Virus record (IMG/VR): IMGVR_UViG_3300017755_000030
From: a virus
Reading direction: 5' to 3' (one strand)
Length of the DNA stretch: 35,388 bases
Positions 20,621 to 23,961 of this stretch are shown piece by piece. The notes beneath the pieces are model-generated. The model worked only from the letters and a program-made list of their open reading frames with translations. It searched no databases and was not told the DNA's origin. Positions within the stretch are counted from its first letter, which is position 1. Each line of letters begins with the position of its first letter. The position numbers and the translations under genes were made by a program.

Positions 20621-21487
20621 ATGACGATCAGCATAACCAAACCCACAGTCGGCGGTTCAGAGAATACATGGGGAACCACGATCAACGCGGCACTTGATGA
20701 CGTTGTGGACGTTCTGAACGGTGATACCGCAAGCACCCCAGACTTAACTGCTGGATCATGGAAGGTCGGCGGCACGGCTGTTACTGCTGATGCTGCGGAG
20801 ATTAATAAGCTGGACGGCTTAACAGCCTCTACGAGTGAACTAAATAAACTGGACGGTGTGACGGCTACTACAGCAGAGTTGAACCATACTGACGGTGTGA
20901 CCAGCAACATCCAGACGCAGTTAAACGCCAAGGCTTCTACGTCAACAAGCATTTCCGCTGGCGGCGGTTTAACGGGTGGTGGGTCTTTAGCGTCCAACCG
21001 CACCATCAGCCACTCGGACACATCAAGCCAAGGCAGCGTAAACAACAGCGGCACGACGGTTATCCAAGACATCAGCCTTGACACATATGGTCACGTTACG
21101 TCTATCGGAAGCACAACAATTAGTATTCCGACTGGCGGCCCTAACTATGCAAGCCCTTCTTTTGGGTACAGAAGCTCTGACGGAACTGTCACAACCGCTG
21201 GCTCTGGGGGTATGTATGGGGAATATAAGTTTAATGTTCCACACAACGCGGGAAGTGGCACAATCAGTGTAACTGGCTCTGGCTCATTCATAACGTGTAC
21301 TTCTGGGGCCAGTGGCTACAACACTAGCGTAAGCCCAAGCAGCACGAGCGCAAGGACAACGAGTTTTTCCCTCTCCGCATATCAGGTTGCTGGAGGATCA
21401 TTTTACCTTGGCCCAAATGGCTCATTAAGTATTGATGTGAACTCTAGCGGCAGGGCAAATGTTTCAACCATTGGGTTTGCTTTATAA
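20621..21487 (+). CDS. Tail fibre-like protein
   Basis: N-terminus ITKPTVGGSENTWGTTINAALDDV, followed by the repeats EINKLDGLTASTSELNKLDGVTATTAELNHTDGVTS, which are typical of phage fibre shafts. Confidence 0.65.
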   Translation: MTISITKPTVGGSENTWGTTINAALDDVVDVLNGDTASTPDLTAGSWKVGGTAVTADAAEINKLDGLTASTSELNKLDGVTATTAELNHTDGVTSNIQTQLNAKASTSTSISAGGGLTGGGSLASNRTISHSDTSSQGSVNNSGTTVIQDISLDTYGHVTSIGSTTISIPTGGPNYASPSFGYRSSDGTVTTAGSGGMYGEYKFNVPHNAGSGTISVTGSGSFITCTSGASGYNTSVSPSSTSARTTSFSLSAYQVAGGSFYLGPNGSLSIDVNSSGRANVSTIGFAL

Positions 21488-23305
21488 ATGACGCTCGTAC
21501 CCCTCGACATCCCCGCAGGATTTTACCGAAACGGAACTGATTTAGAGCAGTCTGGCCGCTGGCGCGATGGCAGCTTGGTCAGGTGGCGGGATAACAGCTT
21601 GCGCCCAATCGGCGGGTGGCAAGAGCGCAAAGCGTCATTCAGCACAAACCCTGTGCGCGGAATGCACACATGGGAGTCAAATACCGGCACGGCCTATGCG
21701 GCTGGCGGTTCATATAATGAACTTAAAGCCATGACCGGCGGTGGCACTGTGTACGACATTGCTCCAACAGACCTAGCGACAGGCCGCGAAAATGCGGAAG
21801 TCGAAACGGGTTACGGATACGGATTTTATGGTGACGGGTTTTATGGTACTCCGATCCAGCAAAACGCCAATGCTGTTCCAGAAGAAGCCACCCAATGGAA
21901 TTTAGATAATTGGGGCGAGTATTTGGTTGCTTGCAATAAGGATGACGGGCGCTTGTTGGAGTGGCAGTTAAACCCAGCAGTTAAAGCGGCTCCGATTGCA
22001 AATGCCCCTACGGGCAATCTTGGTTTAGTTGTAACGGAAGAGCGTTTTATCTTTGCCTTGGGTAGTGGCAACAACCCGCGTAAAATCTCATGGTGTGATC
22101 GTGAAAACAACACAGTATGGACGCCAGCAGCTACAAACGAGGCTGGCGATATTGAGCTTGCCGACAGCGGGCAGATCATGCAGGGCGTTAGAACGCGAGG
22201 CCAGACGCTTATTCTGACGGATACATCAGCCCACACAGCGCGATACCTTGGCCCGCCTTATGTGTATGGCTTTGAGCGCGTTGGTACATCGTGTGGGGCA
22301 ATATCCCGCAAGGCTGCGTCTGACGTTGATATGGGCGTATTCTGGATGGGCCAGCGTGGTTTCTTTAGGTTTGATGGTAACAGCGTTCAAGAAATACCCT
22401 GCGATGTCTTCGACTATGTTTTTGGCGACTTCAACCCAGCGCAGCAATCAAAGGTTTGGTCGTTTGCCAACGGCCAGTACGGCGAGGTGTGGTGGTTCTA
22501 TTGCTCTGAAGGCGCTACTGAAATAGACCGCTACGTTGCTTATGATTACAAGGAAGGCCATTGGCTAATCGGCAACCTATCACGCACGGCTGGCGTCCAG
22601 CGCGGCGTCTTTCGTTATCCGTTCATGGCAGGAGAAAATCCCGAAACGGTAAATTATACAGTCACAGTGGTTAATGACGGTGGCAATAAATATGCAATCG
22701 GAGGCATTTCTGGATCTGCGCCAGCTTTGACCTTTGTGCGGGGCAACACATATGTGTTTGACCTCTCAGACGCGTCAAACTCTGGGCATCCTTTTGCATT
22801 TAGGACAAGCGCAGATGCGTCATACACTACCGGCGTAACGACAACAGGAACGGCTGGGCAAGCTGGAGCCAAGGTTACTATAGTGGTGGCGAGCGATGCG
22901 CCAGATAGTTTAAAATATTACTGCACCGTTCACGGCAATTCTATGGGCAACACAATTTCTGTTGGCGGGCCGGTCAGTATTTATGAGCATGAAGTGGGCC
23001 TTAATGTAGATAGCTCATCAATCTTTGCCGAAAGCGGGCCAATATCTATTGGCGCAGGAGATCAAGTTGCGCGTGTTACTGAGCTTATCCCTGACGAAAA
23101 AACGCAGGGAGATGTCAACGTCACGTTTAAGACACGGCTTTACCCAAATGGCGCTGAGACAAGTCATGGTCCATTCACAACTGCAAACCCAACGTCAGTA
23201 AGGTTTACTGGTCGGCAAGTTCGTATGCGGGTTGATGGAGTAATCTTGTCTGACTTTAGGGTTGGCAACATGCGAATTGACATGAAGGCTGGGGGCCGTA
23301 GGTAA
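21488..23305 (+). CDS. Major tail (nozzle/tubular-type) structural protein with an inserted cupredoxin-like domain
   Basis: 605-aa ORF. The N-terminus LDIPAGFYRNGTDLEQSGRWRDGSLVRW is typical of a conserved podovirus tail protein. Insert at 22652-22970 (see findings). Confidence 0.65.
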   Translation: MTLVPLDIPAGFYRNGTDLEQSGRWRDGSLVRWRDNSLRPIGGWQERKASFSTNPVRGMHTWESNTGTAYAAGGSYNELKAMTGGGTVYDIAPTDLATGRENAEVETGYGYGFYGDGFYGTPIQQNANAVPEEATQWNLDNWGEYLVACNKDDGRLLEWQLNPAVKAAPIANAPTGNLGLVVTEERFIFALGSGNNPRKISWCDRENNTVWTPAATNEAGDIELADSGQIMQGVRTRGQTLILTDTSAHTARYLGPPYVYGFERVGTSCGAISRKAASDVDMGVFWMGQRGFFRFDGNSVQEIPCDVFDYVFGDFNPAQQSKVWSFANGQYGEVWWFYCSEGATEIDRYVAYDYKEGHWLIGNLSRTAGVQRGVFRYPFMAGENPETVNYTVTVVNDGGNKYAIGGISGSAPALTFVRGNTYVFDLSDASNSGHPFAFRTSADASYTTGVTTTGTAGQAGAKVTIVVASDAPDSLKYYCTVHGNSMGNTISVGGPVSIYEHEVGLNVDSSSIFAESGPISIGAGDQVARVTELIPDEKTQGDVNVTFKTRLYPNGAETSHGPFTTANPTSVRFTGRQVRMRVDGVILSDFRVGNMRIDMKAGGRR

Positions 23306-23961
23306 TGCCGGTTCCAGTATTACCCCCCATTGGCCCCGACTTACGCCAGTGGGGGCGTCAGCTAACAATATACTTGCAGCAAAACCTAGCAAAGCTTGGT
23401 TTTAAAACATCAACGGATAACCCGTCTGAAAACGGCGTCATCTTATGGGATAACGTAAACGGCTACCCTGTCGTATCTAAGAATGGCGAGTTTCGGCAGA
23501 TTGTTCTGGAAGATGGTCACGCTGACTTTATGAAGACGTCTGACGTCGTGCCGGTAGCAGCAAACACAGCGTACAAGCTGACTTACGATGCTCCCACCGG
23601 CAACGACGGAATAACACAGGGAACGCCAGCTTCAAGGATTGTTTTTGAAGAAGCGGGCCAATACGTCATATCGTTTTCGGCGCAAATATCATCCACATCA
23701 GCCAGCACGGTTCACTTCTACTTCTGGCCCAGCGTGAACGGCACAAACGTAGCGAACAGCGGCATGACAACAGCGCTGCACCGGAATAACGCCACACTGG
23801 TCACGTCACGCACGCAAATATTTACCGTTGCGGCGAATGACTACTTGGAAGTGAACTACATGATAGACAGCACAAGCGGCTTCTTAAACTACACCGCAGC
23901 GTCTTCGCCTGTGCCAGCAATACCCGCCTCAACCTTAGCGATTACGAGGCTTCATGGATAA
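23305..23961 (+). CDS. Tail-associated protein with a beta-sandwich-like C-terminal domain (possible receptor-binding protein)
   Basis: 218-aa ORF with an ATG/TAATG junction. The C-terminal half has jelly-roll-like alternation (YVISFSAQISS...YLEVNYMID). Confidence 0.5.
   Translation: MPVPVLPPIGPDLRQWGRQLTIYLQQNLAKLGFKTSTDNPSENGVILWDNVNGYPVVSKNGEFRQIVLEDGHADFMKTSDVVPVAANTAYKLTYDAPTGNDGITQGTPASRIVFEEAGQYVISFSAQISSTSASTVHFYFWPSVNGTNVANSGMTTALHRNNATLVTSRTQIFTVAANDYLEVNYMIDSTSGFLNYTAASSPVPAIPASTLAITRLHG

Follow-up and report, generated by a model that had tools for sequence, protein, structure and literature searches.

A predicted cupredoxin cassette with a conserved type-1 copper-type ligand set in a podovirus tail hub

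Introduction

Cupredoxins are known as exported electron carriers and as domains of enzymes, and in cyanophages the plastocyanin gene petE is an auxiliary metabolic gene whose product serves as a soluble, host-type electron carrier during infection. Structural metals are also known from phage fibres, with iron in T4 gp37 and zinc in T4 gp12, and these T4 sites are clusters of histidines on the trimer axis. Phage structural proteins are further said to carry Ig-like accessory domains (a description credited to Fraser and colleagues in 2006, with T4 Hoc as an example), which are reportedly small, exposed beta-sandwich modules thought to act in weak adhesion. For iron in T4-like tail fibres, a 'Ferrojan Horse' has been proposed in the literature. 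Here we consider IMG/VR virus record IMGVR_UViG_3300017755_000030, a stretch of 35,388 nucleotides that is referred to below as the window. Its gene for a 605-residue tail hub protein encodes, at 22630-22978, a self-contained domain of the cupredoxin (plastocyanin-like) type that forms a branch of its own and is carried as a mobile cassette in a loop of the hub.

The alignments mark this branch by two motifs, G-H-P-[FLI]-x-F and Y-Y-C-x2-H-x(2,3)-M-G, and a complete predicted ligand set of the type-1 copper kind is kept across a very large family that includes marine phage tail-fibre, baseplate and hub proteins as well as small exported bacterial lipoproteins. Full-text literature searches returned no report of a cupredoxin or type-1 copper-type domain in a phage tail or virion; where a cupredoxin-like fold is mentioned in a preprint on mycobacteriophages, the subject is membrane proteins and not tails. 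What we describe is a familiar fold and site in surroundings new to them, the host-contact proteins of virions, and a large unannotated family. Taken as a whole, we think it probable that the locus encodes a conserved cupredoxin cassette in the hub that forms a metal-stabilised, surface-exposed accessory module for host contact.

The domain and its ligand residues

An earlier inspection of this DNA without database searches (the sequence-only reading) had proposed a cupredoxin-like insert at 22652-22970 within a tail protein. The open reading frame at 21488..23305 (605 amino acids), the peptide quoted from it and the codons of His434, Cys479, His482 and Met486 are all exactly as that reading gave them, and its interval falls inside the inserted DNA, 22630-22978, that is delimited by homologues lacking the insert. 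With its linkers, the cassette covers 349 nt and residues 383-497 (22630..22978, plus strand), as defined by BLASTN and MAFFT against the related locus L001 and by a protein alignment of hub homologues (A2). The cupredoxin-type domain proper spans residues 387-492 (22646..22963, plus strand) and is supported by a domain hidden Markov model (HMM) at 162 bits, AlphaFold2 (AF2) modelling, Foldseek and hhalign.

Four residues, all encoded on the plus strand, make up the predicted site. His434 (CAT, 22787..22789), in the motif G-H-P-F-x-F, is the first or N-terminal predicted copper ligand and aligns with plastocyanin His37. The predicted thiolate ligand is Cys479 (TGC, 22922..22924), the sole cysteine of the domain, aligned with plastocyanin Cys84. 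His482 (CAC, 22931..22933), in the loop between the last two strands, is the second predicted histidine ligand and aligns with His87, while Met486 (ATG, 22943..22945), the predicted axial ligand, is followed by an invariant glycine and aligns with Met92. In the AF2 model a strand begins shortly after His434, the last strand but one finishes at Cys479, and the loop that follows contains His482 and leads into the final strand with Met486. Judged by the homology alignment, the four side chains would converge on one point.

The pattern C-x2-H-x(2-4)-M occurs once in the 605-residue protein. It turns up in 0.4% of shuffles of the hub protein, and in 0.125% when a histidine 25-70 residues upstream is required as well (n = 20,000 in each case). 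The case made here rests on fold, homology and conservation, and not on this shuffle frequency.

Relationship to cupredoxins

The sequence-only reading had taken the segment for a cupredoxin-like beta-sandwich, and structure prediction agrees. An AF2 model of a 117-residue segment, built with 32 homologues, is all-beta with nine strands and has a predicted local distance difference test score (pLDDT) of 93.4 and a predicted template modelling score (pTM) of 0.86. Nearly all of its top 50 Foldseek matches in the PDB are cupredoxins or cupredoxin domains of multicopper oxidases (probability ~1.0, E ~1e-3, TMq 0.45-0.63). The best of these is 2dv6, the cupredoxin domain of Hyphomicrobium nitrite reductase (TMq 0.63), and others include rusticyanin, AcoP, Phormidium plastocyanin (1baw), pseudoazurin, and laccase and nitrite-reductase domains. 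For the modelled domain, the match to the cupredoxin fold class is clear, though not close.

Profile comparison points the same way. When a trimmed 32-sequence profile of the domain family (A3) was aligned with seven classical cupredoxins using hhalign, it scored 32.7 with a probability of 66-77% and placed the His/Cys/His/Met residues on plastocyanin His37/Cys84/His87/Met92; controls with a reversed template and 20 column-shuffled templates gave at most 0.9%. Of the seven reference sequences, rusticyanin and azurin alone were visibly confirmed against the PDB, and an independent bridge to Pfam was therefore sought. It was provided by P0395, a database relative which scores 35.9 bits against PF00127, passing the cut-off of 21.2. 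A3 aligns with P0395 at a probability of 94.4% (E 9.5e-8) with all four ligands in register, including G-H-P-F and Y-Y-C-x2-H-x2-M, and the A3 HMM scores P0395 at 27.4 bits. This bridge is independent of the seven reference sequences. Since P0395 both passes PF00127 and aligns in register, the segment counts as a cupredoxin, of a divergent branch. Sub-threshold matches to PF00127 were also seen in 6 of the 32 family members scanned (best E 0.013), and the Ig-like Pfam families I-set, FN3 and Big_2 were found neither in the window domain nor in these 32 members.

Other matches were spurious or weak. A phmmer search of the domain against PDB sequences returned TAL-effector repeats and antibody V-domains, which were judged spurious and attributed to NDGGNK/ASN(S)G and Y-Y-C strings. 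For the N-terminal third of the domain (VTVVNDGGNKYAIGG...SDASNSGHPFAF, window 22640-22990), the summed phmmer match to TAL-effector repeats reached E ~1e-5; as no single stretch was significant, it was judged a compositional coincidence. A profile search against the PDB gave antibody and SUMO noise, with plastocyanin 1b3i at E 0.45 only. PF25489 (At5g54830-like domain) recurred as a weak, sub-threshold match in 5 of the 32 A3 phage domains and in several cellular relatives (seen in proteins P0356, P0365, P0369 and P0379), which may reflect a distant beta-sandwich relationship.

Conservation of the ligand set

Conservation of the ligands among homologues that carry the insert was borne out both near and far. 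Among 115 distinct close domains, all four ligands are present in 113 and rank among the most conserved columns (first His in 113, Cys in 114, second His in 114, Met in 115). Invariant in A3 are a single Phe column, both His, the Cys and the Met together with the Gly that follows. The broader survey took the 242 complete domain copies found in the 150 best cluster representatives; here the full His/Cys/His/Met set is present in 175, and exactly one cysteine in 189. The ligands are kept down to ~30-35% identity in tail fibres of cultured cyanophages, pelagiphages and OM43 phages.

The first three ligands are all present in 180 of the 242 copies, all absent in 47 and partly present in 15. The His/Cys/His residues are thus kept or lost jointly, which matches the prediction of a single functional site; the copies are phylogenetically related, so that Fisher P-values calculated on this joint retention overstate their independence. 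Two loop lengths coexist in the family: the window has C-x2-H-x3-M, and the other form, C-x2-H-x2-M, has the spacing of amicyanin. An aromatic residue before the cysteine, which the sequence-only reading had likened to blue copper proteins, is indeed common to the small members of that group. Its parallel claim for the glycine directly after the methionine stands in part: the glycine is present in 239 of the 242 copies, but it is not shared with the classical proteins aligned, where plastocyanin has M-V-G and amicyanin M-R-G.

Some carriers look different. The giant proteins P0183 (3815 aa), P0185 (2758 aa), P0188 and P0189 contain up to ~25 tandem copies of the domain, in which His/Cys/His is mostly replaced (e.g. 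by Y-E-N or N-S-N) and Met-Gly is kept.

Insertion into the tail hub

Comparison at the DNA level shows 349 nt of the window (22630-22978) in place of 22 nt, or six residues (HNSDSD), of L001 (BLASTN, MAFFT). Insertion of a domain into a podovirus tail protein, as had been proposed, is also seen in proteins: homologues of 496 aa lack the domain with flanks 97-99% identical to those of the window hub, as in P0068. Across the 120 closest hub homologues, 36 are without the domain (496-497 aa), 79 have one copy and five have two. Whether the insert is specific to one lineage had been left to an alignment of homologues, and it is not; the module is mobile and widely shared.

Identities of domain and backbone to the window hub are decoupled in the alignments. 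In P0067 the backbone is 74-77% identical and the domain 94%, and in P0081 the backbone is 64-75% identical and the domain 56%. In hubs of the P0111 type, the domain follows an H-E-V-G-L motif rather than preceding it, a second insertion point. These comparisons suggest repeated acquisition or exchange of the domain in the same loop. The G+C content over the insert is ~0.49, with no compositional anomaly, and the direction and age of transfer are therefore not readable from composition.

The position of the insert can be related to a solved hub. In the hexamer of Pseudomonas phage Pa223, residues 354-387 form an outward-projecting fibre-attachment loop (10.1101/2025.06.11.659172). In our hhalign alignment, window residue 366 falls on Pa223 residue 346, and we infer that the insert (residues 383-497) sits at a loop equivalent to this one. 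A full-length AF2 model of the hub is weak (mean pLDDT 62.8, with 70-88 in the putative propeller region) and was used solely for fold class and linker behaviour. In it the insert has a pLDDT of 85-93, against values under 50 for residues 365-384 and 495-510, a profile that a domain on flexible linkers should give.

Some hub homologues have a further insertion elsewhere. P0083, P0093, P0094, P0100, P0106 (~1035 aa) and P0178 (1012 aa) have a second insertion of ~430 aa after the position of window residue 167 (A2 columns ~187-645). In five of these hubs it contains a further ligand-complete domain copy, then repeats (TFxNGD-V-Y, GLxxxTxYF-V) and finally a C-terminal block; in P0178 the repeats are present but the additional domain copy is not.

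The host gene and its neighbourhood

The gene carrying the insert (21488..23305, plus strand) was assigned from its open reading frame, phmmer, hhalign and Foldseek, and the backbone of its product is, by sequence homology, the hexameric podovirus tail hub or nozzle related to Pa223 gp59. With phmmer, the hub protein matches the Pa223 tail hub (9nwi_Y) at E 1e-12 and the Vibrio phage VP1 nozzle at E 5.7e-5 (8zkm_E, also 8zkk); PMC11784390, the presumed source of the VP1 entries, did not contain the terms searched for in its text. With hhalign, the probability for Pa223 gp59 is 96.3% over 299 columns. Foldseek with the weak full-length model lists tail proteins of Pa223, VP1, SU10, A4, Pan3, P22 (gp10), Sf6 and T7 as its first matches, so that phage hubs and nozzles lead (E 1e-19 to 1e-8) and kelch and WD propellers follow.

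Both flanks of the insert are common to relatives without it. The N-terminal part with the probable beta-propeller (21488..22629, plus strand, residues ~1-381) was recognised by BLASTN, PHROG and hhalign. It has 89.8% DNA identity to L001 539-2620, is covered at residues 6-390 by the virion structural family PHROG 3287 (E 1.4e-83), and aligns with Pa223 gp59 residues 26-346. The C-terminal part (22979..23305, plus strand, residues 498-605), defined by DNA and protein identity, is 94.8% identical in DNA to L001 from 2643 onward and 99% identical in protein to P0068. The nearest cultured relative of the hub, Octadecabacter virus DB2 gp13 (492 aa), is also without the insert.

Directly before the hub lies a probable tail fibre gene of 288 aa (20621..21487, plus strand), assigned from weak PHROG tail matches and gene order. 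The same fibre-then-hub order is found in Pa223, with the gp60 tail fibre directly upstream of gp59, and in DB2, with gp12, a 'tail fiber protein', directly upstream of gp13. The window as a whole (1-35388) looks like a near-complete podovirus genome of ~35 kb, with genes for a primase-helicase, exonuclease and large terminase as well. Its relatives are found on contigs of 35-37 kb, including 'uncultured Mediterranean phage uvMED' and Tara records, and the portal and major capsid proteins of L001 are of the SU10 type (precomputed Pfam). DNA similarity to L001 stops at 23461 (window 23305-23961 compared with L001 2969-3325), and the gene downstream of the hub encodes 218 aa in the window and 118 aa in L001, which together indicate a mosaic boundary just after the hub gene.

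Carriers and cellular relatives

In PHROGs, residues ~385-493 are covered piecemeal by a number of tail-fibre and baseplate families, and this split from the family covering the backbone is a first sign of a shuffled module. Of 1.84 billion cluster representatives searched with the profile, 8,849 match at E ≤ 1e-3, among them 5,595 at E ≤ 1e-10, and some of these proteins have ~25 tandem copies. All database members looked up are annotated 'hypothetical protein'. A Foldseek search of predicted viral structures gave 70 matches at E ≤ 1e-3, the best with a TM above 0.8, and the named ones are mostly cyanophage tail-fibre, baseplate and structural proteins.

Ligand-complete copies with ~35-51% identity to the window domain occur in cultured phages: Prochlorococcus phage P-SSM2 PSSM2_028 (residues 143-240, directly after collagen repeats), Methylophilales phage Melnitz gp187 (residues 62-172) and the tail fibre of Pelagibacter phage Baldr (residues 604-706). 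All 31 of the domain-bearing phage records in the GenBank phage collection have marine hosts. The collagen triple-helix repeats of the P-SSM2 carrier (L003 3578-5257) match PF01391 at E 1.6e-19 just before the domain, and one of the genes nearby bears the name piuC but the product description 'ferrochelatase', an annotation that looks inconsistent.

The family also has members in bacteria. A genome scan with the single domain sequence found one locus, on contig CALJFB010000015.1 of a Flavobacteriaceae metagenome-assembled genome (L006 3146-4306, 41% identity by tblastn). Its product is a predicted lipoprotein of 386 aa with two repeats, the first a weak CHRD match (PF07452, E 0.002), and then a C-terminal ligand-complete domain. 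The neighbouring genes encode an ABC transporter, a peptidase and dihydroorotate dehydrogenase, and such housekeeping neighbours indicate a cellular locus rather than a prophage. A search from this domain led to small exported proteins of 120-185 aa, several of them named 'plastocyanin' by JGI.

Proposed function and alternative explanations

If the loop equivalence to Pa223 holds, six copies of the domain would ring the tail exterior. Each would most probably bind one copper ion or, in the absence of copper, another soft metal. Because virion proteins fold in a copper-poor cytoplasm, we propose that copper could be loaded after lysis, in oxic seawater; zinc occupancy is the other option for metal loading. 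The metal would lock the ligand loop and stiffen an exposed accessory module, which would in turn aid contact between tail and host surface, either directly or through fibre docking, much as Ig-like accessory domains may do in other phages, here with a metal centre in addition. The gain, loss and swapping of the cassette between near-identical hubs fit a role in host-range adaptation.

Several points weigh against this proposal. Metal loading is the chief difficulty: the cytoplasm in which virion proteins are synthesised contains essentially no free copper, canonical cupredoxins are exported, and loading would have to take another route. The domain here is internal (residues 383-497) to a protein without a signal peptide, and its cellular relatives carry signals of the lipoprotein or Sec type. 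The full ligand set is missing from some 28% of family copies (67/242), mostly in long tandem arrays, which indicates that the scaffold can work independently of metal. In the searches of the whole protein and of the domain, no cupredoxin match was obtained from Pfam at E ≤ 10 or from NCBIfam, and neither collection has a model that detects the family (window domain for both, and 32 members for Pfam). The cupredoxin relationship that the sequence-only reading had proposed to check with profiles failed to appear in these direct scans and emerged from hhalign and from the bridge through P0395 to PF00127. The classical signature is not matched either. The PROSITE-type pattern has Asn after the first His and Pro or Gly just before the second; the classical cupredoxins aligned have H-N (H-S in rusticyanin) and P-H or G-H, while the window has G-H-P-F and C-T-V-H and the family C-[TSV]-[VN]-H. 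The full-length hub model is poor, as given above, and the alignment to Pa223 from which the loop equivalence is drawn ends 15-20 residues before the insert. A role of the domain in adsorption is suggested by analogy only.

One alternative is a beta-sandwich without metal, structural or decorative, that acts only as a spacer or in weak adhesion, as Ig-like domains of phages do, with the ligands as an inherited relic that has no present metal function. The 67 copies lacking the full set, whole arrays without it (P0183, P0185, P0188, P0189), the established fact that virion proteins fold where copper is scarce, and the dispensability of the domain (36 of 120 close hub homologues do without it) all favour this account. 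A relic would, however, decay residue by residue, whereas the ligands are kept or lost jointly (180/47/15) and are among the most conserved columns down to ~30-35% identity in podoviruses and myoviruses, and a lone conserved cysteine in an extracellular protein is hard to account for otherwise. We regard a metal-free domain as unlikely. To a similar degree, we doubt that the virion carries a non-copper metal such as Zn(II) taken up in the cytoplasm, as a purely structural clamp comparable to the zinc and iron sites of T4 fibres. Assembly is cytoplasmic, type-1 sites accept zinc when copper is scarce (zinc-azurin is obtained by expression in E. coli), and gp37 and gp12 of T4 provide precedents for structural metals; yet Cys, two His and Met with C-x2-H-x(2,3)-M on the last loop is a hallmark of type-1 copper, and the cellular relatives are exported lipoproteins or bear signal peptides, as true cupredoxins do, with one of them passing the Pfam Copper-bind model.

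At the other extreme, the site could be a centre that is active in redox chemistry or presents copper, and so a counterpart of the 'Ferrojan Horse' with copper in place of iron; it would dock on host copper-uptake or cupredoxin-partner proteins or serve in surface sensing or electron transfer. An intact, conserved type-1 site, the confinement of the domain to host-contact structures (hub, fibres, baseplate), the exclusively marine origin of the 31 phage records, cultured or deposited, in which it occurs and the proposed iron analogue are in keeping with such a centre. We nevertheless consider it very improbable: nothing points to a partner, ligand-free copies occur in the same kinds of protein, and the diversity of the hosts (cyanobacteria, SAR11, OM43 and probably roseobacters) argues against one specific receptor. 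The broader proposition that marine phage hubs and fibres bear working blue-copper centres, with the copper-loaded domain active in infection through docking to host copper-uptake or cupredoxin partners or through redox sensing, seems to us improbable too. A chance origin of the ligand-like pattern, within some unrelated fold, could draw on the negative direct searches of Pfam, NCBIfam and PDB sequences with the window domain, but the shuffle frequency of 0.1-0.4%, the fold match to cupredoxins, the register with plastocyanin, the family-wide conservation and the P0395 result, both its PF00127 pass and its alignment, refute it, and we give it next to no credence.

Comparison with described systems

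Among the carriers of the domain are phages of the most abundant bacteria of the ocean, Prochlorococcus, Synechococcus, SAR11 and OM43. As the domain is found in thousands of tail-fibre proteins of marine phages, a copper site on the host-contact apparatus may be borne by many viruses of the sea. Metallated sites, if that is what they are, would add a metal cofactor to the biology of phage adsorption and tie viruses to marine copper chemistry, next to the proposal of iron in tail fibres; were working centres to prove true, virions would, given the abundance of the family, make up a reservoir of strongly bound copper in seawater that has gone unrecognised. Even a purely structural site would provide a new domain family with which to annotate thousands of 'hypothetical' phage tail proteins. 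The idea is directly testable, as P-SSM2, Melnitz and Baldr are cultured carriers and the domain combines small size with a high-confidence prediction.

Among described proteins, the small blue copper proteins plastocyanin, amicyanin and pseudoazurin (PF00127) resemble the phage domain in their beta-sandwich and in the ligand order His...Cys-Xn-His-Xm-Met, of which the Cys, the second His and the Met belong to the loop that joins the final two strands. The C-x2-H-x2-M of the family has the amicyanin spacing, and the C-x2-H-x3-M of the window lies between those of amicyanin and plastocyanin. The phage domain differs in being internal to a virion protein, in lacking a signal peptide and in falling below the Pfam threshold. 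It also has Pro instead of Asn after the first His, no Pro or Gly before the second His, an invariant Met-Gly and an extra Thr/Gly-rich segment (YTTGVTTTGTAG). Also related are the G-H-P-F lipoproteins of marine bacteria (P0395, P0350, P0356, P0365 and the L006 protein), which belong to the same sequence family, share its motifs and ligands, and are matched by the A3 HMM at E 1e-9 to 1e-22 in a local search. Unlike the phage domain, they are exported, cellular and encoded among housekeeping genes, either standing alone at 120-185 aa or placed C-terminally after CHRD-like repeats.

Relative to the solved hubs (Pa223 gp59, the VP1 and SU10 nozzles, P22 gp10 and T7 gp12), the backbone is homologous and the fibre-then-hub order alike, but none of these has a cupredoxin domain, and the loop at 354-387 of Pa223 is a simple fibre-attachment loop. 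The presence or absence of the domain among close relatives and its tandem arrays recall the Ig-like accessory domains, which belong to a different superfamily; the phage cupredoxin domain has, in addition, a conserved set of metal ligands. Cyanophage petE, like this family, is a cupredoxin encoded by marine phages, but its product is not a virion component and does not belong to the G-H-P-F branch. With the 'Ferrojan Horse', the family would share a metal on the host-contact apparatus of marine phages, bound here, as the alignments predict, at a type-1 copper-type site within a single domain.

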